Position numbers and translations under genes: made by a program. Below, one piece after another: positions 7,942-62,195 of a DNA stretch of 64,000 bases. How positions within the stretch are numbered: position 1 is the first letter of the stretch; each line of letters opens with the position of its first letter. The notes beneath the pieces are model-generated. The model worked only from the letters and a program-made list of their open reading frames with translations. It was not told the DNA's origin and did not search any database. Source of the DNA: Sediminibacterium sp. GTDB lineage: Bacteria; Bacteroidota; Bacteroidia; Chitinophagales; Chitinophagaceae. Location: the NCBI GenBank assembly GCA_965283715.1, contig CBDIPL010000004.1, positions 199,780-263,779 on the forward strand, in the 5' to 3' direction.

Positions 7942-7955
7942 GGTAATTTCTTATT

Positions 7956-11405: not shown

Positions 11406-11414
11406 ACGGAAGGG

Positions 11415-17410: not shown

Positions 17411-17438
17411 ATTTAGGATTTGATCAATATAAATAGGC

Positions 17439-36735: not shown

Positions 36736-36737
36736 TT

Positions 36738-38390: not shown

Positions 38391-40313
38391 TTATGTGTGA
38401 TTAAACTTCAAATCTTTAATGAAAGGAAAGCCATGTCTTCTAAAAAGACCTGCCCATTTGGATAAAGCAGGGTTCAATTCAAAAAAATCTTTTTTTGGTT
38501 TTACCTCAAATGGATATAAGGATAATTTTTCGCAAAGTTCATCAACCGAATGAATAAACTCCACATCATCGGTTCCAAACAAGGAATTAATATTCAGGTT
38601 ACCGGAAGCTCCTACGATGATTACAGGAATGCCATGATATACGGCTTCTAAAGAAACAGACGTTGAATTAGATGTGTATACGACATGTGAATTACCCCAC
38701 AATGTAGAAAGAGGCTGATAAACAATAGTATTAGGTATTGTAAAATTGGCCTTTTCTACCATATATTCTACCGGTATCAAAGGATGGGGTTTGATAATGA
38801 TCTGTGAGAATTTCTTTAATGCCCCTTTTTTCTCTGCGAGCGACAGAAGCCCGATCTGGATCTCTGTTTCTGTCTGAATAGATCCCGTAACAACTAACAG
38901 GTTGTAACCTGCCTGCGCATTTTTTTCAGATACACTTTCGATAGGCTGTAAAGATGCGATATACCGTAAAGCTTCGAATGTTTCTACCCTGCTTGCCTCC
39001 CAGCCCCCATTCACCAACATTTGCCTGGATTGATTGCCTGGTGCCGCAAGTAAATCAGGCACCAGCCTTCTTTCTTTGCCGCCTTCGATTTCCATTGCAT
39101 TGCCAGGAAAAACTTTTAAATTATATAAGGCACAATTGGCAGGTGTATGAACGGAGCCCACAAAAAAAGCCTGATGCAATTTGTTTCTGATGGTTAACAG
39201 GCATTGCTCCCATGGTTGGTTTTCCCATACGTAGATAATAAGGTTGGTTTGTGCAGGTAGTTTTTTTGACATTTCATTAAATGCCGACATCTGCATACTG
39301 TTATTGATAGCTGTATGGCCTACAAAAGTTTCATCCCAGTCGTTTTTTAACAGAGGGAAAAAATTCAGTTGAGAACCCGGGAATGAAAAGAACTCATGCG
39401 CTTTAGTAAGAAAATTTTTTTTATACAAGAGCTTACCATAAAAAAAAAGCCCCTTGCAAAAAGAGCGGATACCAATAAAATCTTCCAGAAACAAAAACCT
39501 ACTTCCCTTATAAGCAGCAGATGCATTTAAACGTGATTGGAAATGAACGCTCTCTTTGTAAGAAAGCTGACGCATATTTGAATACATCCATACCCAGTTT
39601 ACCGGAATTTTTTCCTGTTGTATCAGATCATGCAGAGAACCCCAGTAATTAGAATAAAATTCATCGTGATCTGCTTTTTTTAAATCAATACCGGGGAAAT
39701 AGGTAACTATGGTACAGGCTGCACTAGGATCCGGCTTAACATGATTAGAGAAGCGCAGACGTTTCATTACAATATGCACGAGGTACAGTAAAGCCTGAAA
39801 AATCAATGGCAATGACTGGTATACTTTGTCTATTCCTTGTAAAGCTGATTTGTTTTCGCTTTTTGTACGCGTCCATTTAAATGAATGCCTTTGTTGCCTG
39901 AGCCATTTACTTAATACCTGTGCAACTTTTTTATTGCTTCCTATGTATACAAGATGCCGGTAATTTCCACTGATAAATTTCTTTTCAATAACACGTATCC
40001 GCAACACATCGTAAACAGCTTTGGTTTTATAAGGAGATTTATCAGCAATAAGTGTTTGCCACCAATATGAGCCTCCATCTAATAACTCTGTGCACAGGTG
40101 TTCAGATAAGGTTGCACCATTAAATGAAGCAGTGGCCAGGTTTGCTGTCCAGTTAAGATATTCACTTCTCAGTTCCAATACGTCTTCTTCAACAATCTTC
40201 GGAATAGAAAATACACCCTGACTTTCTTCAAACGAATCCCATAGAAAGGTATCAACGCTATTGAGTGGAAGATGGCCGATATCTTCCACAACAGTTAAGG
40301 TCTTTGCGATCAT
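38391..40313 (-). CDS. LIC13510/TIGR04326-like surface carbohydrate biosynthesis protein; orphan with GT-B-like C-terminus
   Basis: SIPKIVEE...LRSEYLNW, SYWWQTLIADK, SNYWGSL, WENQPWE resemble that family (from memory). The C-terminus has IIKPHP and NSTSVSLEAVYHGIPV. Confidence 0.65.
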   Translation of the reverse strand: MIAKTLTVVEDIGHLPLNSVDTFLWDSFEESQGVFSIPKIVEEDVLELRSEYLNWTANLATASFNGATLSEHLCTELLDGGSYWWQTLIADKSPYKTKAVYDVLRIRVIEKKFISGNYRHLVYIGSNKKVAQVLSKWLRQQRHSFKWTRTKSENKSALQGIDKVYQSLPLIFQALLYLVHIVMKRLRFSNHVKPDPSAACTIVTYFPGIDLKKADHDEFYSNYWGSLHDLIQQEKIPVNWVWMYSNMRQLSYKESVHFQSRLNASAAYKGSRFLFLEDFIGIRSFCKGLFFYGKLLYKKNFLTKAHEFFSFPGSQLNFFPLLKNDWDETFVGHTAINNSMQMSAFNEMSKKLPAQTNLIIYVWENQPWEQCLLTIRNKLHQAFFVGSVHTPANCALYNLKVFPGNAMEIEGGKERRLVPDLLAAPGNQSRQMLVNGGWEASRVETFEALRYIASLQPIESVSEKNAQAGYNLLVVTGSIQTETEIQIGLLSLAEKKGALKKFSQIIIKPHPLIPVEYMVEKANFTIPNTIVYQPLSTLWGNSHVVYTSNSTSVSLEAVYHGIPVIIVGASGNLNINSLFGTDDVEFIHSVDELCEKLSLYPFEVKPKKDFFELNPALSKWAGLFRRHGFPFIKDLKFNHT

Positions 40314-40318
40314 TGATT

Positions 40319-41083
40319 TTATTTGCCGGTTCCCTCGTGAAGTTCTCTTATCATTTTTTCAGCTTCAATTAGGTCTTCTTCACAATCAACGCTTTTTACA
40401 GGCGCAGTGCATTCGATCATACGAACTTTCATCCCGTTTTCAACAAACCGCATCATATCTACTGACTCGATCTCTTCATAGTATGCGTTAGGTAATTCCA
40501 CAAATTTCTCAAGCGCGCTTGCCCACATAGGCATTACGCAGATCTCAATACGGCATTCAAATTTCTTATCACCAAGCCAGATAGCCGGCAATGCATTTCT
40601 TGAAAAATACATTGCGTTAGATTGCGTATCTATCACCACTTTAACCTCATTCTGATCTGCTTCAGATTCCGAATAGCTCATCCACTTGTAAAGGTTCACA
40701 CAAGAAACATCTGCATTTGCTTCCAGTTCGCTAATTGCCTTATCCAGCCATTCACCTGTTACAAGAGGCTCATCTCCTTGAAAGTTAACAACAATGTCCC
40801 ATTTCTTTCCGGTACCCTTATAAGCCTCATGTACGCGTTCAGTTCCCCTGCGGTGCGAGTCGCTGGTTAATACAACTTTAGCGCCGAAAGCTTCACAACG
40901 ATCCACTATTTCCTGGTTAGGTGTTGCTATCAGAATTTCATCAGCATATTTTGAATTACTTATATTTTCCCAAACCCACCGAAGCATTTCTTTCCCATAA
41001 ATCATGCGAAGCGGTTTATCAGGAAACCTGTACCCACCCATACGGGCCGGGATCACAACTAATACACTACGTCCGTTTATCAT
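40319..41083 (-). CDS. kdsB: CMP-ulosonate synthetase, KdsB-like (copy 2, divergent)
   Basis: IPARMGGYRFPDKPL, HRRGTER, NFQGDEP, VKVV, YFSR, ESVDMMR, SVDCEED. Confidence 0.8.
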   Translation of the reverse strand: MINGRSVLVVIPARMGGYRFPDKPLRMIYGKEMLRWVWENISNSKYADEILIATPNQEIVDRCEAFGAKVVLTSDSHRRGTERVHEAYKGTGKKWDIVVNFQGDEPLVTGEWLDKAISELEANADVSCVNLYKWMSYSESEADQNEVKVVIDTQSNAMYFSRNALPAIWLGDKKFECRIEICVMPMWASALEKFVELPNAYYEEIESVDMMRFVENGMKVRMIECTAPVKSVDCEEDLIEAEKMIRELHEGTGK

Positions 41084-41826
41084 ATTTTACTTAATATTTT
41101 TTCAACGCGTTTAAGATCTTCCAGTGTATCCACCGCCTTGGTATCAAAAGCGGTAGGAACCATTCTTACTTTCTTTCCATGTTCAAGAATCCGCATCATA
41201 TCAACAGATTCGGCCACCTCCAGTGGAGTTGGTGTAAGCTGAATATATTCAAGCAGAAAATCTCTTCTGAATGGAATAATACAAACCTGTTTATACATCG
41301 GGATATTATCCGTTTTTGTTGGTGTTGGAATAGGCTCCCTTGAAAAATACAATGCATCACTGTTCAGATCGCATACCACTTTGATGCAGTTGCGGTCTTC
41401 AAATTCTTCTACAGATTCTATTTTTCCAAGAAGATTGGTTACCTGTATCGATTCGTCTGTAAGCATGGGTTGTAATGCTTCATCGATCATGTCAGGATGT
41501 GTCATGGGTTCATCACCTTGTACCATTACAACAATATCGTATTTTGTATTGTTCAGGGCTTCAAGTTTTGCCAATGCTTCTGCACACCTGTCTGATGCAC
41601 GTTCGTGCGTATCGCTGGTCATCACCGCCGTTCCGCCTATTGATTCAATGTAATCGAAAATCTCCTGATCGCATGTTGCTACTGCGGTAAGGGTTAGTTT
41701 TGGTGACTGTGATACTCTCTCGTACACATGTCCAATCATAGGTTTTCCAAGTATTTGTGCCATCGGCTTTCCCGGGAAACGACTGCTGCCCATACGTGCG
41801 GGTATCAATGCAATAATGTTGGTCAT
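41080..41826 (-). CDS. kdsB: CMP-ulosonate synthetase, KdsB-like (copy 1)
   Basis: IPARMGSSRFPGKP, HERASDR, VQGDEP, IKVV, YFSREPIP, ESVDMMR, AVDTLED. Confidence 0.88.
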   Translation of the reverse strand: MTNIIALIPARMGSSRFPGKPMAQILGKPMIGHVYERVSQSPKLTLTAVATCDQEIFDYIESIGGTAVMTSDTHERASDRCAEALAKLEALNNTKYDIVVMVQGDEPMTHPDMIDEALQPMLTDESIQVTNLLGKIESVEEFEDRNCIKVVCDLNSDALYFSREPIPTPTKTDNIPMYKQVCIIPFRRDFLLEYIQLTPTPLEVAESVDMMRILEHGKKVRMVPTAFDTKAVDTLEDLKRVEKILSKI

Positions 41827-41837
41827 ACTAGATATAA

Positions 41838-42767
41838 TTAATGATTGTTTTTATGTTTAAGTGCCCATTCTGTAAATACGGGAAACCCCTTATCAAGGCT
41901 GGTGAATGTTTCCATTCCTAATATTTCTTTCAGTGATTGATTGTCTGCATAAATACCATTCTGGTCGCCGGGTGTAGAACCTTCTACAAAAAAACTTGCA
42001 CCGGGGATATTCTTGCATATTTTTTCCAGTAATCCTCCGATGGTTGTTCTTACACCTGTACCTACATTGAACACTTTATTTTTTGCTGATCGATAAGTAG
42101 CCGATCTGAACCAAGCTTCCACAACATCCTCTATATAAATAAAATCCCTGTAACGTTCGAGACTTCCTTTTACAAGTATTTTTCCTGAGTTCAATGCCTG
42201 GGCCAGGTAAATACTCACCATTCCCTGCCTTAGATTACTAAGGTCCTGCCCAGGTCCATATACATTAAACATACGGAGCGCAACAAAAGGTAGTTTATCC
42301 TGGTATACGCGAAGATATCCTTCGCTTGAAAATTTTCCTACACCATATACCGAAAGTGGTTTTGGAAAATGAGATTCATTCACAGGTTCATCCGGAACAT
42401 TTCCATAAACAGACATAGAGCTTGCATACACGATCCTGTCTGCTTTGATATCTATACCATATCTGATCAGGTTCAACGTGGAAACTACATTTTTTTCGAG
42501 ATCGGCAACCGGATCATCGTAACTGATCTCTCCTGATGACTGTCCTGCCAAATGAAGAATAGCCGAACAATCTCTCGGGAACTTTTCCATTGTGGCTGGC
42601 AGGCTGAGATCTTCTTTCAAAAACGTAATACCTTGCGGTACATTTTCAACTTTACCGGTTGAAAAATCATCCACACCTATTACTTCATAGCCTTCCGCAA
42701 GAAATCTTTCGGCAACATGTGAACCAATAAATCCACCTACGCCGGTAACCAATACTTTTTTTTTCAT
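41838..42767 (-). CDS. NAD-dependent epimerase/dehydratase
   Basis: VTGVGGFIG, HLAGQSSGE, SSMSVYG, YGVGK, RMFNVYGPGQ, RDFIY. Confidence 0.9.
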   Translation of the reverse strand: MKKKVLVTGVGGFIGSHVAERFLAEGYEVIGVDDFSTGKVENVPQGITFLKEDLSLPATMEKFPRDCSAILHLAGQSSGEISYDDPVADLEKNVVSTLNLIRYGIDIKADRIVYASSMSVYGNVPDEPVNESHFPKPLSVYGVGKFSSEGYLRVYQDKLPFVALRMFNVYGPGQDLSNLRQGMVSIYLAQALNSGKILVKGSLERYRDFIYIEDVVEAWFRSATYRSAKNKVFNVGTGVRTTIGGLLEKICKNIPGASFFVEGSTPGDQNGIYADNQSLKEILGMETFTSLDKGFPVFTEWALKHKNNH

Positions 42768-42802
42768 TTTTTATAATTTGTGATATTTCCTTTGCGCCAT
42801 GC

Positions 42803-43573
42803 TTAACTGATTTGCTTACGATCAAACGCAGCTGCATTCGATAAGAAAACAGAATCAATTGAATAGGCAAGAAAACGATAGCCTTCATCAATTCTTGATT
42901 TAAGTAATAGCGGATCAGGTGACACAACATGTACACCACCCGGTATCCCATATTTGCGGCATAAAATAAGAATGCGTTCCATTGCTGAAACAAATGCAGG
43001 AGCATCGAACTGTGCCGTTACACCCATTGATGCGGAAAGATCATAAGGCCCTACCAATATTGCATCCAATCCTTCTACCTGCAATATTTTATCCAGTTGA
43101 TCTACTGCTTTTATATTTTCAATCATAGCTACCAGTAGGGGAGCCTGTGCTTCTTCCTGGTATGCCTGGAAATATTTTCCAAAAAGATTGGCCCGTGAAA
43201 ACCCCACACCACGTGTACCGGCCGGAGGCCAGCAACAGGCATCTTTTACCATCTGTAATTCTTCTGCGCTTTCTACCATTGGAACAATTACTCCACCAGC
43301 GCCTGCGTCCAGTGCCTGTTTGCAATCCTTTATATGTCCCTGCGCCAAACGTACCAGTGGCAAGGTTCCCCCAAGTTCCAGCGCTCTGAACATATCTGGT
43401 AATTGATGCAAACTAAATGCACCATGTTCAAGGTCTATGGCAACCCAGTCATAACCTGCATCCCCCATGATCTCTGCTACAGAAGCGTTGGGTAGCTGCA
43501 TCCAGCTGCCTATGGTTGGTTTACCTCCTTTGAGTATTTCGCGGATTGATCTTATTTTTTCAAGGCGATTCAT
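42803..43573 (-). CDS. HpcH/HpaI family class II pyruvate aldolase
   Basis: GYDWVAIDLEH, LDAGAGGVIVPMV, GTRGVG, MIE, VGPYDLSASMG. Confidence 0.92.
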   Translation of the reverse strand: MNRLEKIRSIREILKGGKPTIGSWMQLPNASVAEIMGDAGYDWVAIDLEHGAFSLHQLPDMFRALELGGTLPLVRLAQGHIKDCKQALDAGAGGVIVPMVESAEELQMVKDACCWPPAGTRGVGFSRANLFGKYFQAYQEEAQAPLLVAMIENIKAVDQLDKILQVEGLDAILVGPYDLSASMGVTAQFDAPAFVSAMERILILCRKYGIPGGVHVVSPDPLLLKSRIDEGYRFLAYSIDSVFLSNAAAFDRKQIS

Positions 43574-44226
43574 AGTTCTGACATATTATCAACCGCGTAA
43601 CCGGCATAATTAGGAAATGAGTTTAGATTGGAGGTATGTTTACGTAAGAGGAACGGCACTTTGTTGGCAAGTGCTGCTTCATAATCCGCAATGGCGTCGC
43701 CGATCATTATGGCATCTTCTGCAGGAAGCTGCTGTTGGTGCAGCATTTCGGCAATGGCGTCTTTTTTTGTAGCGGGTGTTCCATACACTGCAAAAAAAAC
43801 AGAATCAAGGTCAAGCTCATGTAAGATACTTTCTAATTCATGCTGTGGCGTTGCAGAAATCACTACAAACAGTTGCCGGTGAATATTACTACGAAGGTAT
43901 TCTTCAGCGCCTGTAACCCATGGTGCTTTGATCACGCCATCAAAACTTAATGCACTGAATTGTTTATGCAGTTCATTGATCCGTTCAGGTGTAACCGTTT
44001 CATTGACCCATTGCAGGTAAATAGGAAACTTAATAAACCTCGACATTCCCCCGTTGGCTTCATGATGCTGTTTAACTTTATCTGCTATTTCTGAACCGTA
44101 TTGCTGAAACAATGCAACAAATGCTTTTGTTTTAACATCAACGGATTCCTTGATCACACCATCAAAATCCCAGAATACAAGCCTGGCTTTTTTAACAGCT
44201 TCTGCCGCAGTTACTGTCTTATCCAT
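43570..44226 (-). CDS. HAD-superfamily hydrolase (phosphatase)
   Basis: WDFDGVI (motif I), SATP (motif II), K, IGDAIAD (motif IV). Confidence 0.9.
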   Translation of the reverse strand: MDKTVTAAEAVKKARLVFWDFDGVIKESVDVKTKAFVALFQQYGSEIADKVKQHHEANGGMSRFIKFPIYLQWVNETVTPERINELHKQFSALSFDGVIKAPWVTGAEEYLRSNIHRQLFVVISATPQHELESILHELDLDSVFFAVYGTPATKKDAIAEMLHQQQLPAEDAIMIGDAIADYEAALANKVPFLLRKHTSNLNSFPNYAGYAVDNMSEL

Positions 44227-45059
44227 ATCTGGTTAAAGGTGTTTTCAAAACCTGATTCAGAGCTGTCGATTTCTATGGCGTGTCTTTTTTCTTTTAAGGT
44301 AAGTCCTGCGGCTGTAAGCAATGCCTTACATTGATCTGCCTGTTCTGTAAAATCATCATTTACTTCTATCAGTATACCCTTGATTTTAGCGAGAACACTA
44401 ACACCACCTTTCAAAATAAAATGTTCCAGTCCGTCCACATCCATTTTGATATATTCGGGAACAGGTAAAGATAAATGGTAGATGGCCTCTTCCATACTCA
44501 AACCGATCAACTGGTAATCGAATGTTTGTTTAATGGCCTGTCCATCCCATCCGAAGTCTTTTCCAAAAGTTGATAAAGCTCCACCCCATTCTGTACTGGT
44601 CATTCTCATTTGACTGATGCTTAAGCGATCGCTCAATGCAAGAGGAACTATGCAAATCCTATCGCTTAATTTATTCAGGTAAATATTTCGGGCGAGCAGC
44701 TCTAAGTTGAACACGGATGGTTCAAAGGCATATACCCTGCAGTTTCTTTTATGAGCCGCATACACAGAATACAAACCTATGTTAGCTCCAATATCCCAAA
44801 GAACAGCGCCTTCGGGTAAAGTATCAATCCACTCAAGCGTTTCGGGCTCTTTGGTGGAAAAACTTTTGATGCGCCATTTGCTTAATGTATTCGGTATTGC
44901 AAATTTAAACTTAAGTCCATTATGGCTAACTTCCGCTGAACGGTTCATTGAATAATTAATCACCTGCTCATAGAACTGTTTGCCTATAGCGGTAGGACCG
45001 AGTATAGATGCAAAGCGCGAGAAAAAACCCGAAATGAGCTTTTTTAATTTTTCTTTCAT
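44211..45059 (-). CDS. FkbM family methyltransferase
   Basis: KEPETLEWI, WDIGANIGLYS, AFEP, IKMDVDGLE. Confidence 0.92.
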   Translation of the reverse strand: MKEKLKKLISGFFSRFASILGPTAIGKQFYEQVINYSMNRSAEVSHNGLKFKFAIPNTLSKWRIKSFSTKEPETLEWIDTLPEGAVLWDIGANIGLYSVYAAHKRNCRVYAFEPSVFNLELLARNIYLNKLSDRICIVPLALSDRLSISQMRMTSTEWGGALSTFGKDFGWDGQAIKQTFDYQLIGLSMEEAIYHLSLPVPEYIKMDVDGLEHFILKGGVSVLAKIKGILIEVNDDFTEQADQCKALLTAAGLTLKEKRHAIEIDSSESGFENTFNQIWIRQ

Positions 45060-45943
45060 TTTGTTGAGTTGGAGGATTGGTAGTCATTAATTTGATTGAT
45101 AAGCTGTATAAGTCCCTGCCCTAAATCAACGTGCATAGGATGCACATATTTTCTGCCCAGTTTTGGCTGGTACGCGTATGGAGTTCTTATATAATGACCG
45201 GAGTCTTCTGAATTGATGAATTCAATCTCTTTTGAAAATCCGAGTATTTCAGCCAGCATTTTCATCAGATTAGAAAAACTCATCGGTTCATGGCCTGTTA
45301 ACACAATGCTTTCGTTTTTAAAATCTTCCCCTAAAGCAACCACGCTTGCTTTCGCAGCATCTTCTACATGAATATATTCCCGAATGGCATCGGGGCTAAC
45401 TTTTGAGATCTGTATAAATCCTTTTTGCAATGCATCTCTTACTATACGGTATAGTCCATTGCTTTCATCGGATCTTGGTCCAAATAAAGATCCATAACGC
45501 AGAATAGTATAATCAAGCCCGAAAGCGCGGGAGTATTCTTCAACATAATGTTCTGAAGCCTGTTTACTGCATCTGTAAAACCCGCCTTCCCTGCTGTAAA
45601 CATACACTGTGCTTGCATATACAAAACGTTTGATAGCATGTTTACGGCTCGCTTCCAGTGCCTGTACGGTTCCCAGTACGTTTATGCGTACTGTTTCAAC
45701 CGGTTTATCCAATGCATCATTGAGGTCGGCAAGTGCGGCGAAATGATAGACTACATCAGAACCCGCTATGGATTTTTCAAGTGTTGCCACATCAAGAAGG
45801 TCACCTACAATCATTTCCTGATCTGCACGTAACCAGGGAGAAGTTTTGCGGTCGAAGATACAGACCTTGTGTCCAGCCTCGCTTAATTGATCAGCCACAT
45901 GTGATCCTAGAAATCCACTGCCGCCGATAACGGTTACTCTCAT
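45056..45943 (-). CDS. NAD-dependent epimerase/dehydratase
   Basis: IGGSGFLG, HFAALAD, ASTVYV, YRCSK, RYGSLFG. Confidence 0.88.
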   Translation of the reverse strand: MRVTVIGGSGFLGSHVADQLSEAGHKVCIFDRKTSPWLRADQEMIVGDLLDVATLEKSIAGSDVVYHFAALADLNDALDKPVETVRINVLGTVQALEASRKHAIKRFVYASTVYVYSREGGFYRCSKQASEHYVEEYSRAFGLDYTILRYGSLFGPRSDESNGLYRIVRDALQKGFIQISKVSPDAIREYIHVEDAAKASVVALGEDFKNESIVLTGHEPMSFSNLMKMLAEILGFSKEIEFINSEDSGHYIRTPYAYQPKLGRKYVHPMHVDLGQGLIQLINQINDYQSSNSTK

Positions 45944-45957
45944 AATTTATTTTTCTT

Positions 45958-47639: not shown

Positions 47640-47670
47640 TGATACTATGTATTTAAATATTAATCTGTGA

Positions 47671-49191: not shown

Positions 49192-49217
49192 GAACCATTC
49201 TGTTCAATCTAGTTTCT

Positions 49218-51799: not shown

Positions 51800-51807
51800 A
51801 TAGCTTT

Positions 51808-52572: not shown

Positions 52573-52593
52573 AATACGATTGTTTAATAATGA

Positions 52594-53256
52594 TTACTTG
52601 GTTGCGTATCCTATCAGCATTAATTCCCTTGACCAACGAAGGAATTTATTTTGTGTTCTCACGGGTATAAACGGAGAAATAAGTGAACAAAATAAATTGA
52701 TGGCCGGATATCTCCACACAACAGGAAGCTGTCTGAAAATATAAACTTTAATATCGCTGAAATCACTCATCATATAGAGATCAGTCAATGCCACTTTTGT
52801 AAACGGTGTACGGTGTGTAAAATCGTCGAAATATATTTTATAATTAGATTCCCAATCCGGAACCAGGCAAAGTATTTTACCACCGGGTTTTAACACCCTT
52901 CTCGCTTCCTTCAGAAACTTATCAGGGTGCCAGAGATGTTCGAGTAATGATTTGTTATAAATAATATCAAAATGATTATCGGGGAAAGGCCATACATCAT
53001 CTTCAAGGTTCACTTCCTTTTGAATAGGAACTGTGGGACATTGTGTTCCGGCATGAGCAGATAGGTCTACTCCATAACAATCAAGTCCTAGTTTCTGAAA
53101 CTCAGCCAGAAACTCGCCGCGGCCACATCCAGGTTCCAAAAATTTTTGTCCTGCCTGCATGCCAAACTGGTGAAACAGGTAAGAGGCCAGTTTACCTGGA
53201 TACGTAGTTTGTGGGTGAGAATTGGTGTCATAAATGACCTTAAGATAATCTGCCAT
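52594..53256 (-). CDS. Class I SAM-dependent methyltransferase
   Basis: LEPGCGRGE, GVDLS, FDIIY, EHL, RVLKPGG. Confidence 0.92.
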   Translation of the reverse strand: MADYLKVIYDTNSHPQTTYPGKLASYLFHQFGMQAGQKFLEPGCGRGEFLAEFQKLGLDCYGVDLSAHAGTQCPTVPIQKEVNLEDDVWPFPDNHFDIIYNKSLLEHLWHPDKFLKEARRVLKPGGKILCLVPDWESNYKIYFDDFTHRTPFTKVALTDLYMMSDFSDIKVYIFRQLPVVWRYPAINLFCSLISPFIPVRTQNKFLRWSRELMLIGYATK

Positions 53257-53260
53257 GTTT

Positions 53261-53701
53261 TTATTTTAATTCTTGTACAATTTCCAAAATATTCCCTTCC
53301 ATATCATAACAGTACATCACTTTGACTTTACCGTCTGGTGATACCTGGTAGTTATTTTTGATACTTCCTTTATTTGAAATAATATATTTTGTTACTTGCT
53401 CTAAATCGGTAACTGTAAATGCAATATGAGAGCAGCCTAACCGGTTAGATTCCTGAAGACCTGCATGCTCTAGGTCCGGAGAAGCCGGTGAGATGTATTG
53501 TAAAAGCTCTACCAAAGATCCATCGGGCAGTTTTAATTTTGCCCAGTCAAGTATGGTCTCTTGTAATCCAACAAGTGTATCAATATAATTCCCTTTTTCA
53601 GTCATACGCGAAAACAACTGCATACCTAGCCCTTCGTAAAAAGCAATTGCTTTTTCAAGATCTTTAACAACAATACCTGTGTGCCTTGTATTAACTACCA
53701 T
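53261..53701 (-). CDS. VOC (glyoxalase/methylmalonyl-CoA epimerase-like) protein
   Basis: Metal-ligand pattern RHTGIVVKDLEKAIAFY ... VELLQY ... HIAFTV ... ILEIVQ. Confidence 0.88.
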   Translation of the reverse strand: MVVNTRHTGIVVKDLEKAIAFYEGLGMQLFSRMTEKGNYIDTLVGLQETILDWAKLKLPDGSLVELLQYISPASPDLEHAGLQESNRLGCSHIAFTVTDLEQVTKYIISNKGSIKNNYQVSPDGKVKVMYCYDMEGNILEIVQELK

Positions 53702-55082
53702 ATACTTCTTTGATACTGTCAGCTATCGCCGTTTCAAATACCGATAAACCTTCCATCATGGCTTCTTCATGAATCATTAAAGGCGGAGCAAGCTTAATGG
53801 ATTCTCTACCTGTATGTACAACTAATAAGCCGGTCTGTAAACATTTTTCGCTGATCAGATCGCAGAGCGAACTTAAAGCAACACCCTTGTCATCATTAAA
53901 AATTACTGCTGCCAAAAGTCCTACTCCCTGCACTGAAGAGATATAACCGGCATACTTTGTTTTGATCCTGTCCAGTTCCTGATGGAACTTAACACCCAGG
54001 TCTCTTGAATTATCTATTAAACCATCTTCAATCAATGCCTCCAGATTAGCTAATCCTGCTGCACAAACTAATGGATTGGCAGAATGCGTTGAGCTCATTG
54101 AGCCAACACCAGGAAGATCCATTACTTCTTTTGTTCCCAACACCAGCGCTAGAGGTAAACTTGAACTGGCACCTTTACCGCAAGCCAGCAAATCTGGTTC
54201 CACTTCATAGTTCATATAACCAAATAATTTGCCGGTACGCCCAAAACCTGCCTGCATTTCATCGAAGGTTAAAAGCAAATCATTTTCTTTTGCGAAGGCA
54301 GCTACTTCCTGTACAAATTCTTTTGGATAAAAAACAGCACCCCATCCCTGGAAAGTTTCCATCATGATACCACACAGGTCTTCCTTAGGATCTATGTTTT
54401 TTTTAGCCACCAGTTCTTGGATAGCATCCCTGAAATATTTGCGCGGGTTTTCCATAGCTTCTTTTCTCCATGGATAAGGAAAGGGAAGATGGTAAATATT
54501 AGGGTCAAGAAAACCGATCCATTCTTTTTGTCCTGGGTTCCAACCCATCATTTGCGCGCCCATTGTTCTTCCATGCCAGTTTCCTTCAAAACAAAGGATA
54601 CCACCTTTTCTTTTTCCCAACTTCTGACCATTTAACCGCATCAGTTTCAAACATGCTTCCGTAGCTTCGGTACCTGCTGAAAGTAAAAATGCTTTCTCAA
54701 ACTGTGCCGGTGTATGTGAGATCAAATAATCCAGGTAAGCATATCTTTCAGGAGAAGTAAAAGTATAGGTATGTAAAAGTGGTTTTTCAATTACTTTCCG
54801 CAAAGCATCTACAATTCTTTTATTTCCATGTCCTGCATTGGTTACAAAAATGGTACTCGAAAAATCGATCCATTGATTTCCCCATGCATCAGATACCTGA
54901 AAACCTTCTGCACGATCCCATATAATGGGTAACTGCCCATGCATAGAATGCGACTCAGTTTCATACACTCTTTCCAGGATCGGAATACTTTCCGGTACAG
55001 GAATAGCTGTTGCAATTGATCTATATTTTGTTTTTACCTGAGCAACCTCTTTGGGTTTGTGAGAAAAACCTAATCCGGACAT
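53691..55082 (-). CDS. Class III PLP-dependent aminotransferase
   Basis: WIDFSS, SAGTEA, GNWHGRT, FDEMQAGFGRTG, LACGKG (PLP lysine), STH. Confidence 0.92.
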   Translation of the reverse strand: MSGLGFSHKPKEVAQVKTKYRSIATAIPVPESIPILERVYETESHSMHGQLPIIWDRAEGFQVSDAWGNQWIDFSSTIFVTNAGHGNKRIVDALRKVIEKPLLHTYTFTSPERYAYLDYLISHTPAQFEKAFLLSAGTEATEACLKLMRLNGQKLGKRKGGILCFEGNWHGRTMGAQMMGWNPGQKEWIGFLDPNIYHLPFPYPWRKEAMENPRKYFRDAIQELVAKKNIDPKEDLCGIMMETFQGWGAVFYPKEFVQEVAAFAKENDLLLTFDEMQAGFGRTGKLFGYMNYEVEPDLLACGKGASSSLPLALVLGTKEVMDLPGVGSMSSTHSANPLVCAAGLANLEALIEDGLIDNSRDLGVKFHQELDRIKTKYAGYISSVQGVGLLAAVIFNDDKGVALSSLCDLISEKCLQTGLLVVHTGRESIKLAPPLMIHEEAMMEGLSVFETAIADSIKEVYGS

Positions 55083-55085
55083 AGT

Positions 55086-55820
55086 TTATTTTTTTATTGA
55101 TTCTAAATAATTAAGCAGTGGCGTACCTTGGTTTTGTAACTGATATGCTATATAATTAAAGTCTTCCTGCGTATCAACTTCATGACAAAGTGGAGATTCA
55201 AATACCATCATTTTGTCTCCATGCAGGCTATTCGATTCCAGCACTGATGAACTGCGGATGATGTCAATATATCCGTCCGGTATATAAACAGGCGGAAACA
55301 TCTGGCGAGGAAGATTCACTTTTTCTGGTGTGAGGTCATCACGCAATCCTTTGAAGTATCCTTCTTCGTCTTTTAAAAACCATTTAAACGGTGATTCGGA
55401 TGCAGCATGTCCCGATCTTAATGAACTTGCATTTTGTGAGGTAAGAAAAAGTTTGATTGCCTTACTCATAATTGCAGGATCTCTAAGGGGGGTTGTGGGT
55501 CTCAGGTGAACGACATATTCTGGTACTTCTTTTTCATTATCGCGAAACCATTGCAAAGCATGTAGAACAAAATCGAGGTCGCTTGATTTATCGCCCGAAA
55601 TCAAATCCGGTCTTAAGAAAGGAGCTTCTGCTCCATAACTTACCGACAAATCCGCATATTCCTGTGAATCTGTTGAGATGATAACACGGTCGATTTCCGG
55701 GGTCATCTTACCGGCTGCGATGCTATAAGAAAACAATGGGAAATCACCCAAAAGATTGATGTTCTTGTTAGGCACTCCTTTGGATCCGCTTCTTGCTGGA
55801 ATAATGGCTACTATACTCAT
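55086..55820 (-). CDS. neuA: Acylneuraminate cytidylyltransferase (CMP-nonulosonate synthetase)
   Basis: IPARSGSKGVPNKN, STDS, PFLRP, HLRPTTPLR, PRQ, EVDTQED. Confidence 0.92.
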   Translation of the reverse strand: MSIVAIIPARSGSKGVPNKNINLLGDFPLFSYSIAAGKMTPEIDRVIISTDSQEYADLSVSYGAEAPFLRPDLISGDKSSDLDFVLHALQWFRDNEKEVPEYVVHLRPTTPLRDPAIMSKAIKLFLTSQNASSLRSGHAASESPFKWFLKDEEGYFKGLRDDLTPEKVNLPRQMFPPVYIPDGYIDIIRSSSVLESNSLHGDKMMVFESPLCHEVDTQEDFNYIAYQLQNQGTPLLNYLESIKK

Positions 55821-56662
55821 GATTGAAAAAAGTCAGTATATATTTTTTGGAAATAAGACAATTGCTTTTTAAAAACCTCAATCCCTTCATCATCCCTGTA
55901 AACCTGGAAAATCAAAGGCATGTTAAACTCTAACGTAGAAAATGCGGTAAAAAAATCTGTGAAACGGGCATCGCCTGTTCCGAGGAAAACAGAACCGCCA
56001 CCCAGTGTTCTGTCTTTAATATGTATGTCGGAAACTCTATTCCCGTATAAACTGAATTCTTCCAGCGGGTTATAACCTAGTGAGGCGCTGTTACCTGTAT
56101 CGTAATTAACCGTTATCTTTTTTGAATCAAAACGATCGATCAGATCTTTGAATGGCTTTGGTGCCAGATCTGTTTCAAGCGATAAATTTATATTTGCTTT
56201 TTCGGCCAGTTCCAACACCGGTGTAAGTGTTTCCACCAGGCGATCTTTGGCTGCAGCATCCTGTAACGAGGATTGATCAACACATGGCAATACAATATCT
56301 TTCAAACCAATCTGTCTTCCATTTTCCATCAACACTTTTAATACATCCAGACTTTTTTTACGGATGTCCGCATCTGCATGATGCAGCGGAGCCTCCATAA
56401 AATAATCAGCACATACCGTGTTTACAGCAACGCCAGTTTGCTGCACCATATTTCTAATTTCAACAATCCCATTATCGCTCAATAAAGGATTTTTCTCTGC
56501 ATCATTATAATCAAGAATGAATTCAATGGAAACGAGGCCCAGCTCTTGGGCAATTGGAAATTCTTCCGACCAAGATCCAACTGGATGTGCCTGATACCTA
56601 TTTTGGTATTTAGGCAATAAACGTCCTTGCATGATTCCAAAACCGGGCGCATACTTACTCAT
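55817..56662 (-). CDS. Sugar-phosphate isomerase/epimerase, xylose-isomerase-like TIM barrel (UlaE-like)
   Basis: GIMQGRL, SIEFI, SLETD, NYDTGNS, DIHIKDR; ATG 56662 lies 1 bp after the neuB stop. Confidence 0.85.
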   Translation of the reverse strand: MSKYAPGFGIMQGRLLPKYQNRYQAHPVGSWSEEFPIAQELGLVSIEFILDYNDAEKNPLLSDNGIVEIRNMVQQTGVAVNTVCADYFMEAPLHHADADIRKKSLDVLKVLMENGRQIGLKDIVLPCVDQSSLQDAAAKDRLVETLTPVLELAEKANINLSLETDLAPKPFKDLIDRFDSKKITVNYDTGNSASLGYNPLEEFSLYGNRVSDIHIKDRTLGGGSVFLGTGDARFTDFFTAFSTLEFNMPLIFQVYRDDEGIEVFKKQLSYFQKIYTDFFQS

Positions 56663-56663
56663 A

Positions 56664-58550
56664 CTATAAATAACGTTCAAGTTTTTCTAAAGCAAACCAA
56701 AATCCTTCGCCACCGTTTTTATGTCCCTGCCAAATTTCCGGTATAAAAGTCGCATCAGGACATCCTTCTGCTAGGATTTTTCCCAGTCTTTCAAAATCCA
56801 TTTCACCTTCGCCTACCTGCAAACCTTCCCCGTTCAATCCCTTTGCATCACCCAAATGAAGATGTGCTGTATAAGGGGCAATCTTTTCGGCAAATGCATA
56901 AAAATCCTGTTTAAAATAATTACAGGTAAGCATACTGTGTGAAACATCAAAACACATACGCAGGCTATACTGTTTGCAATATGAAACGATCTCATCAACA
57001 TGCACAAAAATATTCTGGTAACGTTGCCCACCAAAATGCCATGGGAATGGCGCCATTGTTTGAGGCGTAATTTCCACTCCTTCTGTATCTAATTCTGCAA
57101 GGCTTTTAAAGAACTGGTCATAATAAGCAACTTTCATTTCAGTTGCAAATGGTGCATCCATGCTAAAGCCGCCAATATTGGCAACGATCTGTGGTCTGGT
57201 TTCTTTTGGAAAATATTTTTTCAGGCTACGGGTAATGTCAATTACCTTTTGTGTTTCCTGCATGGAATATTCACGGTAAGCTTTGTCTGGTGTTGCCAGA
57301 TCCATTAGGTGCGAACCTTTGAATAATTCTGGCGCATGTACCACAAATCCACATTCATATTCTCCGGAAAGAAAATTTGCCGGATCTAATTCCATATCAG
57401 AATAAGAGAGATGAAACTCATAAAGATCTGGCTTAACAATTTTATGATATTCCTGAAAATCATGATACCTTACCGGAACACCCCATCTATGTTTGAAAGA
57501 ATAACTTCTGGGTTTGTACCTTTTGTCTTCAATATCGCTATCAAAAAAATAATCCTCAGCAAGCATATCCCTTTTCAGTTCAACACCCAGCAGTTTATCG
57601 TAGTTATTTGGTGGAAGTCCTTGTCCGGGACTTAATACTTTAATATGATGAGATGCAAGAATGGTCCCTTTTTTTAATTCCCGGGAAGATACCAGGCTCT
57701 TACCAAGATTTTCGCGGTTAATCATTTCACCCTGGCTTAACACTCGTTCTTTATCACTTCCAAGCGCGATCTCTATTTCGCGGATACCGGTAATCATTTC
57801 TTTAAATTCTGAATATTCAAGGCTCGCCGCGTGATCGGGCCCTTCCATAAAACGGTCGAGCGTAAAATGTCTCTCAATAATTTTTGCGCCAAGAGCAACA
57901 GCGGCCATAGATACACTGATGCCTCTTTCATGTCCTGAGTAACCAACCAGCGGATGGATCTTTGCAATGCTTTTCATCCATCGTAAATTTATATCGTGCA
58001 ATGGAGCAGGATAAGTACTGTTACAATGAAGCAATGCAAAATCTACCTTTCGTTTTGTAAGAAAATCAACGGTAAACTTCACTTCATCTGTTTTACTCAT
58101 ACCGGTTGACAGAATCAACGGTTTACCCGTTTTGGCCAGCCTGTCGAGTAATGGCAAGTTGGTTAAATCTGCAGACGCTACTTTATATCCTAACACACCA
58201 AAAGACTCAAGTATATCTACGCTTGAAATATCCCATGGTGTACATAAATATAAAATTCCTTTCGCAGCGCAATATTCAGAAAGGCTTTTATGCTGCTCTA
58301 CCGAAAGTTCAAACCGGTTTAATAAATCAATGATATATTCAGTACCGAGATCTTCGCCTGATTTATCAAGGCTTTTTTTCCGGTAAACTTCTTTTAGCTG
58401 ACGCATTTGGAATTTAACACAGTCAGCACCCATTTCAACAGCTTTATCAATCATTAATTTAGCCCTGTCAAAATCTCCGTTATGATTATTGCCAACTTCA
58501 GCAATAATGAAAGTTCTGTCACTACAGATATCAAATACTCCTATTTTCAT
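56664..58550 (-). CDS. neuB: NeuB-family ulosonate synthase (NeuB TIM + SAF) fused to a C-terminal xylose-isomerase-like TIM barrel
   Basis: IIAEVGNNHNGD, ADCVKFQ, KVASAD, ILSTGMS, LHCNSTYP, GYSGHE, IERHFT, GPDHAASL, SAF region LGKSLV...SPGQG. The extra about 280 aa has EFHLS, VHAPE, FDVSH, HLHLGD, IPEIW. Confidence 0.92.
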   Translation of the reverse strand: MKIGVFDICSDRTFIIAEVGNNHNGDFDRAKLMIDKAVEMGADCVKFQMRQLKEVYRKKSLDKSGEDLGTEYIIDLLNRFELSVEQHKSLSEYCAAKGILYLCTPWDISSVDILESFGVLGYKVASADLTNLPLLDRLAKTGKPLILSTGMSKTDEVKFTVDFLTKRKVDFALLHCNSTYPAPLHDINLRWMKSIAKIHPLVGYSGHERGISVSMAAVALGAKIIERHFTLDRFMEGPDHAASLEYSEFKEMITGIREIEIALGSDKERVLSQGEMINRENLGKSLVSSRELKKGTILASHHIKVLSPGQGLPPNNYDKLLGVELKRDMLAEDYFFDSDIEDKRYKPRSYSFKHRWGVPVRYHDFQEYHKIVKPDLYEFHLSYSDMELDPANFLSGEYECGFVVHAPELFKGSHLMDLATPDKAYREYSMQETQKVIDITRSLKKYFPKETRPQIVANIGGFSMDAPFATEMKVAYYDQFFKSLAELDTEGVEITPQTMAPFPWHFGGQRYQNIFVHVDEIVSYCKQYSLRMCFDVSHSMLTCNYFKQDFYAFAEKIAPYTAHLHLGDAKGLNGEGLQVGEGEMDFERLGKILAEGCPDATFIPEIWQGHKNGGEGFWFALEKLERYL

Positions 58551-58563
58551 TTACTCTTTTATT

Positions 58564-59928
58564 TTATTTATTATCTCTAACTGTCCACGATTGAAGACCC
58601 GATTCTTCGAATTTAAATGGTGTATATGTGAGTTTTTCTGCTTTCAACCACTGCATAAATTTTTGCCTGGAAAAAGCTGGAACATAAAAAAGGAAGTAGC
58701 CACCTCCACCTGCACCCAAAAGTTTACCGCCAATAGCTCCGTTTGAAATTGCCCCTGTATAAATTGTGTCTAGCCAGGGGGTACTGATTTTTGAACTAAA
58801 TGATCTTTTTAGTTGCCAGGCAGTATCCAGACATAATCCTAATTCGTGTAATCTTCCGCGAAGCAAATGATTACGCATATCATAGGTTAGATCAACATTT
58901 GCCTGTATCCTTTCTTTAACATTGCCGGATTTGGTTTGTTCTTTTTGATCAGTATGTATATTTCCCGAATCATGTGTTGTTCCTGTGTAGCAAAGAACAA
59001 GGCTTTCTTCAAGTTCAAGCAATACATGTTTAGGCATCCTGATAGGGTGAATCAGGTTCTGTTTTGGATTAAATTCCATAAAGTTGAATCCGCCAAACAC
59101 AGTTGCATACTGATCCTGCCAACCACCTGCTACTCCCAGGTAAAGCCTTTCTGCCTGGTAAGCGATTTCTGAGATCTCATATTGATCCCATTTATCATTT
59201 CTGAATTGGTTAAAGCAGCCCAGAATAGATGCTGCAACCACTGCCGATCCACCCAATCCTGAATTCATCGGAAAATCCGAATGCAGGTATAATTCAAATC
59301 CGAATGAAGGTTTGATCGCTTTTATCACTGCCTGGATAAGCACAAATTTGCCCCTATCTGTAAGCATTGTTTCATAATTATCATATTCAACGGAATCATT
59401 CAGATCCAGTGAATGAATATGGATCTTTGCATCCTCACGCACTTTTAATGTCGCATGCGAATAAAGTGAAATGGTAGCGTTAATTACTGCGCCTGCATTT
59501 TCACTGAAATATAAAGATGTATCAGAACCACCACCACCAAAGCTCACACGAACCGGCGCTTTGGCTCTTGAAAAAACTTTTTCTTCCAGCTTTTCAGGGA
59601 GATGATCCCTGCTAACAACAGATAAAAGTTTCTTATTTTCATCCAGTATCGGGATTATGCGTATTTGATGATCCAATTGCTTTAGAAGGATTTCCCGGGG
59701 TGTATCACTATGTGCCCATATAAAATCATAATTTGTGCAATTTTCTATCGGATCATTCAATGTAACATCTATCAATAATTTTCTACGAATATCTCCGTCA
59801 GTTGCTATACCTAAAACGACACCTTCCTCATTTTGTATAACTACAAAGCCATTTTCATTTGCTTCTATTAACGCCAATGCTTCTTTAATAGTGGCTTTAC
59901 TTTCTATTGTAAAAAGTTCCAATTTCAT
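58564..59928 (-). CDS. CBS-pair + GHMP sugar kinase fusion (HddA-like kinase domain)
   Basis: N-terminal CBS pair (TIKEALALI...GIATDGDIRR...IPILDE), then APVRVSFGGGGSD, PMNSGLGGSA, GGWQDQYA, GGKLLGAGGGG. Confidence 0.9.
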   Translation of the reverse strand: MKLELFTIESKATIKEALALIEANENGFVVIQNEEGVVLGIATDGDIRRKLLIDVTLNDPIENCTNYDFIWAHSDTPREILLKQLDHQIRIIPILDENKKLLSVVSRDHLPEKLEEKVFSRAKAPVRVSFGGGGSDTSLYFSENAGAVINATISLYSHATLKVREDAKIHIHSLDLNDSVEYDNYETMLTDRGKFVLIQAVIKAIKPSFGFELYLHSDFPMNSGLGGSAVVAASILGCFNQFRNDKWDQYEISEIAYQAERLYLGVAGGWQDQYATVFGGFNFMEFNPKQNLIHPIRMPKHVLLELEESLVLCYTGTTHDSGNIHTDQKEQTKSGNVKERIQANVDLTYDMRNHLLRGRLHELGLCLDTAWQLKRSFSSKISTPWLDTIYTGAISNGAIGGKLLGAGGGGYFLFYVPAFSRQKFMQWLKAEKLTYTPFKFEESGLQSWTVRDNK

Positions 59929-62179: not shown

Positions 62180-62195
62180 GTAACCCTCGGGTTAC
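62180..62195. other. GC-rich palindrome GTAACCC-TC-GGGTTAC overlapping the wzz stop codon
   Basis: Perfect 7-bp arms with no adjacent U-tract. Confidence 0.4.

Follow-up and report, generated by a model that had tools for sequence, protein, structure and literature searches.

Two putative CMP-ulosonic acid cassettes, each ending in a predicted GT-B protein, in a polysaccharide locus of Sediminibacterium sp.

Kdo and the sialic, legionaminic and pseudaminic acids are CMP-activated sugars that shape the recognition of bacterial surfaces by hosts, phages and other bacteria. The NeuC-NeuB-NeuA, legionaminic (Leg) and pseudaminic (Pse) acid pathways share a NeuB-family synthase that condenses a sugar with phosphoenolpyruvate (PEP), a CMP-activating enzyme of the CTP_transf_3 family and a transferase at the end of the set. 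The Kdo pathway, KdsD-KdsA-KdsC-KdsB with the transferases WaaA, KpsS/KpsC or WbbB, proceeds through an aldol-type C-C step, an HAD phosphatase and a KdsB/KpsU-like enzyme before transfer. Here we describe a polysaccharide locus of Sediminibacterium sp. (contig CBDIPL010000004.1, positions 199,780 to 263,779; this stretch of 64,000 nucleotides is called the window), in which the genes at positions 38391-59928 include two sets, cassettes A and B, that resemble these two kinds of pathway. Cassette A ends in a protein of the LIC12162 family and cassette B in a protein of the LIC13510 family, both named after proteins of Leptospira. We read the cassettes as sub-blocks of one Wzx/Wzy-type polysaccharide operon, each of which would make, CMP-activate and transfer its own acidic sugar, and we put the probability of this reading at roughly 55%.

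The first-pass annotation of this DNA described two modules, each with one C-C-forming enzyme (NeuB in A, an HpcH aldolase in B), its own CTP_transf_3 enzyme or enzymes, a methyltransferase and a large terminal protein. This description was reproduced by Pfam and NCBIfam profile scans of the 20 cassette proteins, and the block boundaries, gene order and families were borne out by the open reading frame (ORF) listing together with the profile searches. All 21 genes of the region lie on the minus strand in a gap-free co-directional array, and the coordinates hold (Table 1). Three start positions were refined against the closest related locus, L113: 56632 for A03, 51799 for A09 and 47639 for B01. 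The last of these, which was already in the first annotation, is a shorter start that agrees with the L113 gene.

Cassette A has the NeuB-family synthase and the CTP_transf_3 enzyme of the nonulosonate pathways. In place of their other enzymes stand a GHMP kinase, a class-III aminotransferase, two short-chain dehydrogenases/reductases (SDRs), a VOC protein and a pair of xylose-isomerase-like TIM barrels, of which one is fused to NeuB. The transferase candidate of the cassette belongs to TIGR04331/PF27859 and not to a described sialyltransferase family. The synthase A02 is a NeuB-SAF-AP_endonuc_2 fusion whose closest solved structure is the NeuB of N. meningitidis. It belongs to the Pfam NeuB family, and it stays below the equivalog cut-offs of both NeuB_NnaB (TIGR03569, 341.1 bits against 399.65) and PseI (TIGR03586, 250.7 bits against 340.25). 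The fusion is unusually well conserved: its best 120 database clusters (73-93% identity) contain NeuB and AP_endonuc_2 in 120/120 and SAF in 118/120. The adjoining LIC12162 gene is far less conserved, with 46-71% identity among its own 120 best clusters. The CBS-GHMP kinase A01, which scores 247.6 bits against the NCBIfam HddA model (cut-off 600), immediately precedes the NeuB fusion in each of the eight loci examined. A fusion of NeuB to a second catalytic domain is also present in the nonulosonate cluster of Leptospira interrogans; there the partner is an HAD phosphatase, and it has been taken to indicate a route through a phosphorylated substrate (PMC3438082), whereas the partner here is AP_endonuc_2. 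Many LIC12162 loci (L114, L115, L117) also hold short NeuB homologs of about 280 residues without a SAF domain; in some loci these accompany the long fusion and adjoin SIS and NTP-transferase genes.

The stand-alone TIM barrel A03 had been listed as an NAD epimerase and is corrected here to a xylose-isomerase-like AP_endonuc_2 protein. A06 weakly matches the NCBIfam model of methylmalonyl-CoA epimerase. In related loci two units are conserved, an aminotransferase-VOC pair, which is adjacent in all but one of the loci that have both genes, and a TIM-barrel-SDR-SDR trio, with the SDR pair directly before LIC12162 in most. Profile scans of block A revealed no hydrolysing 2-epimerase (NeuC/LegG/PseG) and no NDP-sugar enzymes of the PseB, PseC, LegB or LegC type, and no DegT aminotransferase was found among the window ORFs scanned. 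The sole Epimerase_2 gene of the window is of the WecB type (319 bits, against 78.6 for NeuC) and lies 25 kb from block A, and the sole PseB-like domains belong to a WbpM/PglF-type protein and a neighbouring gene at 15458-19086. Block A does not carry a canonical Neu5Ac, legionaminic or pseudaminic acid gene set.

Cassette B shares with the Kdo pathway the aldol-type step, the HAD phosphatase and the KdsB/KpsU-like enzymes followed by a transferase candidate. The C-C-forming enzyme differs: it is a class II HpcH/HpaI pyruvate aldolase and not the PEP-using KdsA. The cassette has, in addition, a 2-hydroxyacid dehydrogenase, a lactonase-like protein, two extended SDRs, an FkbM methyltransferase and a tandem cytidylyltransferase, and its TIGR04326 terminal protein has no sequence similarity to the Kdo transferases. 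The closest solved structures of the aldolase B06 are HpaI and the 2-keto-3-deoxy-sugar aldolase YfaU (128 bits to both), as well as hydroxyketoacid aldolases; it is a member of the class II HpcH/HpaI family and is below every equivalog cut-off. The dehydrogenase B01 is closest to solved phosphoglycerate dehydrogenases (PGDH) and glyoxylate reductases.

Both cytidylyltransferases of cassette B retain the catalytic motifs IPAR..S.R.P.KP and QGDEP. Among solved structures, B08 comes closest to 1GQ9, the capsule CMP-Kdo synthetase of E. coli (162.8 bits), to which B09 scores 107.9 bits. The TIGR00466 equivalog cut-off of 155.2 is missed by B08 just narrowly (153.2) and by B09 (135.4). By their motifs and family cut-offs, B08 and B09 are assigned to the KdsB/KpsU family, with no assignment of substrate specificity. 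The tandem pair is also present in L001, L111, L112 and L113. No DAHP_synth_1/KdsA domain and no SIS domain (KdsD) were found in the window ORFs scanned, so that the canonical Kdo set is incomplete, and the HpcH aldolase and the lactonase-like protein occupy the place of KdsA and KdsD in block B. The two terminal families are already named in NCBIfam and the pathway logic is like that of NeuB/NeuA and KdsA/KdsC/KdsB; judged from the profiles, membership of a canonical pathway fails on NeuC, the Leg/Pse set, KdsA and KdsD, in agreement with the non-canonical routes proposed at first.

The two terminal proteins had been called orphans. They are indeed uncharacterised, but both belong to named NCBIfam families. 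The LIC12162-like protein A10 matches TIGR04331 over its full length (residues 6-585, model positions 1-585 of 585), and its database homologs carry PF27859. The LIC13510-like protein B10 matches TIGR04326 over its full length (residues 24-622, model positions 3-598 of 602). The LIC13510 family comprises 3625 representative clusters at E<=1e-10, and more than 1688 LIC12162 homologs were scored; a plasmid search revealed no homolog of either protein. The start that gives A10 a length of 588 residues is correct, because family-invariant residues lie within the first 40. The database copy of this protein is 40 residues short (548 residues) and omits the family-invariant L6, T8, W15 and P21.

AlphaFold2 models of both terminal proteins are confident, with a pLDDT of 89.3 for the LIC13510-like and 88.1 for the LIC12162-like protein. 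Foldseek searches against the Protein Data Bank (PDB) gave a probability of 1.00 with E values down to 5e-8 for the former, and a probability of 0.98-1.00 for matches of E<=1e-3, with E down to 1e-4, for the latter. The best fold matches of both are GT-B proteins (WecB/NeuC, VldE, MshA, WaaG, NGT, MurG and MGD1), and the models place both proteins in the GT-B fold superfamily. No sialyl- or Kdo-transferase was among the top 50 fold matches, and neither protein has sequence or profile similarity to the known sialyl- and Kdo-transferase families. No transmembrane (TM) segment was predicted in either, and both are predicted to be soluble. An origin of the two families as paralogs was rejected; the profile-profile probability was 2%, and only the C-terminal nucleotide-binding segment aligned loosely.

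Within 29 diverse LIC13510-family sequences, E364, E369, H389, E447, R450, K508 and P511 are invariant, and H510 and a threonine or serine at position 551 are each present in 28. The 81 sequences of the LIC12162 family share an invariant GxWC (26-29), H49-W50, Q339-H340-G341, W366-G-W368 and E496. In the LIC13510-like model, the K-P-H-P sequence follows the second strand of the C-terminal domain, and a serine/threonine loop precedes a helix about 40 residues further on. We take the invariant K-x-H-P and the S/T-rich loop to recall the CMP-binding HP and Ser motifs of GT-B sialyl- and Kdo-transferases, as a lead only. The use of CMP-sugars by both terminal proteins is suggested by their association with CTP_transf_3 genes.

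To describe this association, 30 genome loci were anchored on LIC13510-family genes with 23-49% identity, from Bacteroidota, Nitrospinota, Proteobacteria, Chlorobiota, Cyanobacteria, Verrucomicrobiota and other groups, and 80 metagenome loci were anchored on LIC12162-family genes. The best genome match of the LIC13510-like protein was a Sediminibacterium metagenome-assembled genome (49%). Six-frame ORFs of all collected loci were searched with all window proteins. Upstream counts refer to the 20 LIC13510 anchors with at least 8 kb upstream and to 22 LIC12162 anchors, and whole-locus counts for LIC13510 refer to 24 loci of at least 10 kb. Twelve genes of the window, among them Ugd, WecB, GT1, GT2, the NTP transferase and WcaJ, served as controls.

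A KdsB-like gene lies upstream of LIC13510 on the same strand in 16/20 loci, mostly immediately adjacent, and a 2-hydroxyacid dehydrogenase in 14/20. For LIC12162, NeuB occurs within the locus in 18 of the 22 cases, and a NeuA-like gene (13/22), an AP_endonuc_2 TIM barrel (13/22) and SDRs (12-14/22) are found upstream. Of the 12 control genes, only the methyltransferase at 59958-60809 was upstream in more than one locus, namely in 5/22 for LIC12162; the other 11 were upstream in one locus at most. A Pfam census of the upstream regions gave the same picture. CTP_transf_3 (14 ORFs), 2-Hacid_dh (13) and methyltransferases head the count for LIC13510, and SDR (24), AP_endonuc_2 (15), CTP_transf_3 (14), methyltransferases and NeuB (12) that for 21 LIC12162 anchors. 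The expected associations, in a fixed upstream order, were thus found for both families, and a lack of association, which the first-pass annotation had named as a refutation, is not what the survey shows. The pairing proposed there of LIC13510 with both HpcH and KdsB stands for KdsB and not for HpcH.

LIC13510 loci contain NeuB in 1/24 (not in the 8 kb upstream), NeuA in 0/24 and LIC12162 in 3/24. Cassette-B-type genes (HpcH, KdsB and 2-hydroxyacid dehydrogenase) are downstream of LIC12162 in 10/22 loci and upstream in none. The two cassettes are therefore often together yet separable, as most LIC13510 loci lack LIC12162. In a second type of LIC13510 locus (L010, L011, L014, L016, L024 and L026; hosts include Rhodocyclaceae, Undibacterium and Cyanobium), the upstream region at about 2000-10000 has the order SDR, DHQS-like, 2-hydroxyacid dehydrogenase, HisC-like aminotransferase, GFO oxidoreductase, methyltransferase, cytidylyltransferase and methyltransferase, often with a GmhA-like SIS gene. 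The DHQS-like enzyme scores 172 bits to 3-dehydroquinate synthase (DHQS). The substrate of DHQS is a 3-deoxy-ulosonate phosphate, so that loci of this type could conceivably yield a carbocyclic or amino-ulosonate product. The constant core of LIC13510 loci is therefore cytidylyltransferase, 2-hydroxyacid dehydrogenase and LIC13510, and the sugar served varies. A tie of the family as a whole to HpcH was rejected, as HpcH marks one locus type only.

The arrangement is not peculiar to this genome but is a widespread conserved locus type. The closest relative, L113 on a contig of 102 kb, has the same order Ugd-methyltransferase-A01 to A10-wzx-B01 to B10 with protein identities of 56-96%. Most enzymes are 78-96% identical between L113 and the window. 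LIC12162 is at 71% and LIC13510 at 76%, and values still lower than those of the terminal proteins are seen for the HAD phosphatase (65%) and the lactonase-like protein (56%). The divergence of the terminal proteins is a pattern that would be expected of acceptor-specific transferases. In L111, where the LIC13510 homolog is about 40% identical, NeuB-LIC12162 is directly followed by all ten cassette-B genes and then by genes that are also downstream in the window (GT2, a gene without assignment, SDR, NTP transferase, AsnB and HisH/HisF). The complete A01 to A10 order is found in L098 and a near-complete one in L072 and L056. Because the whole order recurs in L113 and large parts of the array recur in distant metagenomic loci, the gene arrangement is far beyond chance.

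Upstream of cassette A lie a Wzz-like gene (62192-63310, minus strand), Ugd (60836-62131, minus strand) and, between Ugd and A01, the methyltransferase gene already mentioned as a control. A Wzx-type flippase gene lies between the cassettes, and a flippase follows LIC12162 in many related loci. After block B the array continues with a methyltransferase, a GT2, a Wzy candidate (35554-36825, at least seven TM segments) and an HddC-like nucleotidyltransferase (34860-35561). These are followed by further methyltransferase and SDR genes, a GT4 and AsnB, then by a WbuX/HisH/HisF amidotransferase set, an ADH-GFO fusion, a WecB-type 2-epimerase and a heparinase II/III-like protein, and finally by a GT1, an acyltransferase, a WbpM/PglF-like dehydratase and two Wzi-like proteins. 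Each ORF scanned in the window is either polysaccharide-related or without assignment.

No intergenic gap from 63934 down to 29860 exceeds 72 nt, none between the cassette genes exceeds 35 nt, and in both stretches many genes overlap by 4 nt. A terminator scan gave no terminator-like site at either block border, and promoter-like sites are rarer in the array than in shuffled sequence. The small gaps, the overlaps, the few promoter-like sites and the absence of a border terminator indicate that the cassettes are probably sub-blocks of one transcription array and not separate transcription units. Independent operons for the two cassettes were also considered and dropped, since neither the promoter nor the terminator scan spoke for them. 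As the single co-directional array has one each of Wzx and Wzz and one Wzy candidate, both sugars may be part of one glycan.

Table 1. Genes of cassettes A and B and the intervening flippase gene, in order of transcription
Gene	Assignment	Position	Strand	Profile evidence
A01	CBS-pair + GHMP sugar kinase (HddA-like)	58564-59928	-	Pfam GHMP_kinases_N/C, CBS
A02	NeuB-SAF-AP_endonuc_2 tri-domain fusion	56664-58550	-	Pfam NeuB 287 bits, SAF, AP_endonuc_2
A03	Stand-alone AP_endonuc_2 TIM barrel (sugar-phosphate isomerase/epimerase or dehydratase-like)	55817-56632	-	Pfam 88 bits
A04	CMP-nonulosonate-synthetase-like cytidylyltransferase (NeuA/PseF-like)	55086-55820	-	Pfam CTP_transf_3; PseF 106 bits, below cut-off
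A05	Class-III (omega-type) aminotransferase	53691-55082	-	Pfam Aminotran_3 278 bits
A06	VOC/glyoxalase-fold protein (possible epimerase next to a carbonyl)	53261-53701	-	Pfam Glyoxalase
A07	Class-I SAM methyltransferase	52594-53256	-	Pfam Methyltransf_11/23
A08	Classical SDR oxidoreductase	51808-52572	-	Pfam adh_short_C2 151 bits
A09	SDR (PRK09186/PtmA-like)	50978-51799	-	Pfam adh_short_C2; NCBIfam PRK09186 163 bits, PtmA 115 bits
A10	LIC12162-family predicted GT-B protein	49218-50984	-	TIGR04331/PF27859; NCBIfam 516.9 bits, cut-off 225
wzx	Wzx-type flippase between the cassettes	47671-49191	-	Pfam Polysacc_synt; at least 8 TM-like segments
B01	D-2-hydroxyacid dehydrogenase (phosphoglycerate-dehydrogenase-like)	46653-47639	-	Pfam 2-Hacid_dh_C 173 bits
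B02	6-Phosphogluconolactonase-like (Glucosamine_iso family)	45958-46656	-	Pfam 143.6 bits; TIGR01198 pgl 127.7, cut-off 124.45
B03	Extended SDR (NAD epimerase/dehydratase family)	45056-45943	-	Pfam Epimerase 152.7 bits
B04	FkbM-family methyltransferase	44211-45059	-	TIGR01444 74 bits, cut-off 37.7
B05	HAD-IA phosphatase	43570-44226	-	Pfam HAD_2
B06	HpcH/HpaI class II pyruvate aldolase	42803-43573	-	Pfam PF03328 112.1 bits, gathering score 25
B07	Extended SDR (GalE-like)	41838-42767	-	Pfam Epimerase 166.9 bits
B08	KdsB/KpsU-like CMP-ulosonate synthetase	41080-41826	-	PRK13368 307.3 bits, cut-off 255
B09	Second KdsB-like cytidylyltransferase	40319-41083	-	PRK05450.1-5 232.7 bits, cut-off 193
B10	LIC13510-family predicted GT-B protein	38391-40313	-	TIGR04326; NCBIfam 404.6 bits, cut-off 250

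In the mechanism that we propose, we infer every chemical step, the order of tailoring and the chain length from the gene content. Cassette A would produce a sialic-acid-like 3-deoxy-2-ulosonic acid by a non-canonical route. The CBS-GHMP kinase would phosphorylate a sugar, the TIM-barrel domains would isomerise it and the NeuB domain would condense it with PEP. The substrate of NeuB would accordingly be a phosphorylated, isomerised sugar; support for a phosphorylated intermediate comes from fusions of CTP_transf_3 to an HAD phosphatase in some related LIC12162 cassettes. After condensation, the product would be tailored by oxidation and reduction by the two SDRs, epimerisation or dehydration next to the carbonyl by the VOC protein and the TIM barrel, transamination by the class-III aminotransferase, and methylation. 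The NeuA-like enzyme would then form the CMP-sugar, and the LIC12162-family GT-B protein would transfer it. LIC12162 cassettes often include GmhA-like SIS genes (9 ORFs in 21 loci), so a heptose-derived backbone longer than nine carbons may also be considered.

Tailoring of an ulosonate after its formation has precedents. In the synthesis of Kdo8N, KdnB oxidises and KdnA transaminates the ulosonate once it has been formed, and KdnB/KdnA, like the IolG/IolE pair, served as an analogy for the tailoring logic of cassette A. The SDRs AciE and EpaB (adh_short_C2) epimerise nonulosonates (PMC12053666). The combination of oxidoreductases and an aminotransferase proposed for cassette A would follow the same post-condensation logic as in these systems, whereas the enzyme families differ (class-III aminotransferase, VOC and TIM barrel) and their roles are predicted.

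Cassette B would produce a Kdo-like 2-ulosonic acid without KdsA. By analogy with the Kdo pathway, the presence of HpcH, HAD and KdsB-like enzymes together suggests such a product. The class II HpcH aldolase would join pyruvate, or hydroxypyruvate, to a sugar-derived aldehyde or its phosphate, and the dehydrogenase, the lactonase-like protein and the SDR enzymes would ready the acceptor aldehyde or the donor keto-acid. HAD would remove the phosphate and FkbM would methylate the product. One or both of the KdsB/KpsU-like enzymes would form the CMP-sugar, and the LIC13510-family GT-B protein would transfer it. The methylation of either sugar is suggested by the methyltransferase genes.

Several observations weigh against this reading. 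No enzyme of either cassette exceeds an equivalog cut-off that would fix its substrate, and cassette A has no evident source of the aldose for NeuB. HpcH lies upstream of LIC13510 in only 4/20 loci and anywhere in the locus in 6/24, and the LIC13510 family is not bound to one sugar, as the DHQS-like locus type has a DHQS-like enzyme, GFO oxidoreductases and a HisC-like aminotransferase in place of HpcH. One cassette-A-like locus (L116) has no LIC12162 gene within range. The fold matches of the terminal proteins have low TM-scores (0.3-0.6) with large insertions, and the LIC13510-like model is matched best by UDP-GlcNAc 2-epimerases and not by transferases. When both families were searched as profiles against all PDB sequences, chance matches alone resulted, and neither terminal protein matches a Pfam family in the copy searched. 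The kinase A01 might serve a GDP-heptose-type pathway with the HddC-like gene. The GDP-D-glycero-alpha-D-manno-heptose pathway (GmhA-HddA-GmhB-HddC) would be represented in the window by the HddA-like A01, the HAD protein B05 and the HddC-like gene, and a pathway that crosses the blocks could be formed by these three; all three, however, fall far short of the equivalog cut-offs, the window ORFs scanned yielded no SIS gene, and the window kinase, unlike that of the heptose pathway, carries a CBS pair and has its fixed place before the NeuB fusion. With this possible cross-block pathway, the tight gaps, the lack of a border terminator and the missing aldose source, the description of the cassettes as self-contained in the first-pass annotation was too strong.

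Cassette B may make no new ulosonic acid at all, although we consider this unlikely. Its KpsU-like enzymes would then activate housekeeping or lightly modified Kdo, and its other enzymes would make a substituent derived from glycerate, lactate or pyruvate, or another sugar. B08 does pass the KdsB subfamily cut-off, both paralogs are nearest to the E. coli capsule CMP-Kdo synthetase, and HpcH is present in a minority of LIC13510 loci. Di-O-methylglyceroyl nonulosonates are known, and a PGDH-like dehydrogenase, an HAD phosphatase and an O-methyltransferase would fit methylated glycerate chemistry. Against this, the HpcH, HAD, SDR and KdsB genes are contiguous with 4-nt overlaps and are kept as a block in window-like loci (L001, L111, L112, L113, L053 and L036), and an HAD gene beside an aldol-forming enzyme and KdsB mirrors KdsA-KdsC-KdsB. 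It is more doubtful still that the terminal proteins are something other than CMP-sugar glycosyltransferases, such as enzymes like the nucleotide-sugar 2-epimerases/hydrolases, TagF-like phosphotransferases/polymerases or pseudo-glycosyltransferases. The 2-epimerases that best match the LIC13510-like model include NeuC, and VldE is matched as well; among the matches of the LIC12162 model is a TagF-like capsule multienzyme whose structure was solved with CMP (E ~1e-3), no sequence-level tie connects either family to a glycosyltransferase family, and some LIC13510 loci encode a DHQS-like cyclase. The terminal genes nevertheless come last in their cassettes, directly after a cytidylyltransferase gene in that of LIC13510, and their products diverge faster than most biosynthetic enzymes in L113. 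The CMP-sugars would otherwise be left without a transferase, since only one GT2, one GT4 and one GT1 were assigned elsewhere in the locus, and the likeness of the K-x-H-P and S/T-rich loop to CMP-binding motifs, as a lead, would also favour transferases.

The least probable of the alternatives, in our view a long shot, is that both blocks serve one composite residue, with the product of B attached to or built onto the nonulosonate of A and with the kinase, the HAD and the HddC-like protein acting as a shared heptose-type feeder. The position of cassette-B-type genes, downstream of LIC12162 and never upstream, would agree with this, as would the frequent GmhA-like SIS genes and the split of the HddA-like, HAD and HddC-like genes between the blocks. 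The rarity of NeuB, NeuA and LIC12162 in LIC13510 loci speaks against it, as does the presence of a separate cytidylyltransferase and a separate terminal GT-B protein in each block. We therefore retain the reading of two sub-blocks that each make, activate and transfer their own acidic sugar. A broader proposal, that LIC12162 and LIC13510 are two undescribed GT-B families for CMP-activated ulosonic acids fed by two new routes, one with post-condensation amino and methyl tailoring and perhaps more than nine carbons (A), the other a KdsA-independent route to a methylated Kdo-like sugar (B), is tentative and in our judgement will more probably fail than hold in all its parts.

Other features were seen in the window. 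A second polysaccharide cluster (289-12083, plus strand) encodes GT4-type transferases, a methyltransferase, a Wzz-like protein and a Wza-like exporter of 770 residues, together with a WcaJ-type initiating transferase that scores above its cut-off (450 bits). Wzi-like proteins (capsule assembly) are encoded three times: a tandem pair closes the long operon (13933-15519 and 12248-13936, minus strand), and the third paralog lies in the divergent plus-strand cluster (6164-7834). The gene for the WbuX-like N-acetyl-sugar amidotransferase (28703-29841, minus strand) is broken by a frameshift near 29545, with homolog residues 5-98 in one frame and 97-379 in another, which accounts for the stretch of 317 nt after AsnB that looks like a gap; either the gene is a pseudogene or the frameshift is a sequencing error. 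The ADH-GFO gene (25108-27231, minus strand) codes for a protein of 707 residues in which a zinc-type alcohol dehydrogenase is fused to an IolG-like oxidoreductase of the GFO/IDH/MocA family. The gene adjoins the WecB-type epimerase gene and the heparinase II/III-like gene, the latter of which overlaps WecB by 85 nt.

An open-access literature search found no functional work on the LIC12162/TIGR04331 or LIC13510/TIGR04326 families; a Herbaspirillum neuABC island followed by both terminal families has received one passing mention (PMC6679464). CMP-activated alpha-keto acids without an assigned structure have been reported from environmental bacteria, none of them tied to these genes (bioRxiv 10.64898/2026.04.20.719630). 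Mass spectrometry surveys keep finding CMP-linked keto-acids to which neither structures nor genes have been assigned, and the locus offers candidates: a conserved tri-domain NeuB fusion, an aldolase alternative to KdsA and two large families consistently encoded after a cytidylyltransferase gene. If the proposal is true, cassette A would be a candidate gene set for a higher-carbon CMP-ulosonic acid like the one found by mass spectrometry in Magnetospirillum. The described glycosyltransferase families and biosynthetic routes would each grow by two, and annotation rules would follow for thousands of loci that are now labelled 'surface carbohydrate biosynthesis protein' or 'LIC12162 family protein'. 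The locus is a credible, widely conserved and experimentally tractable lead.

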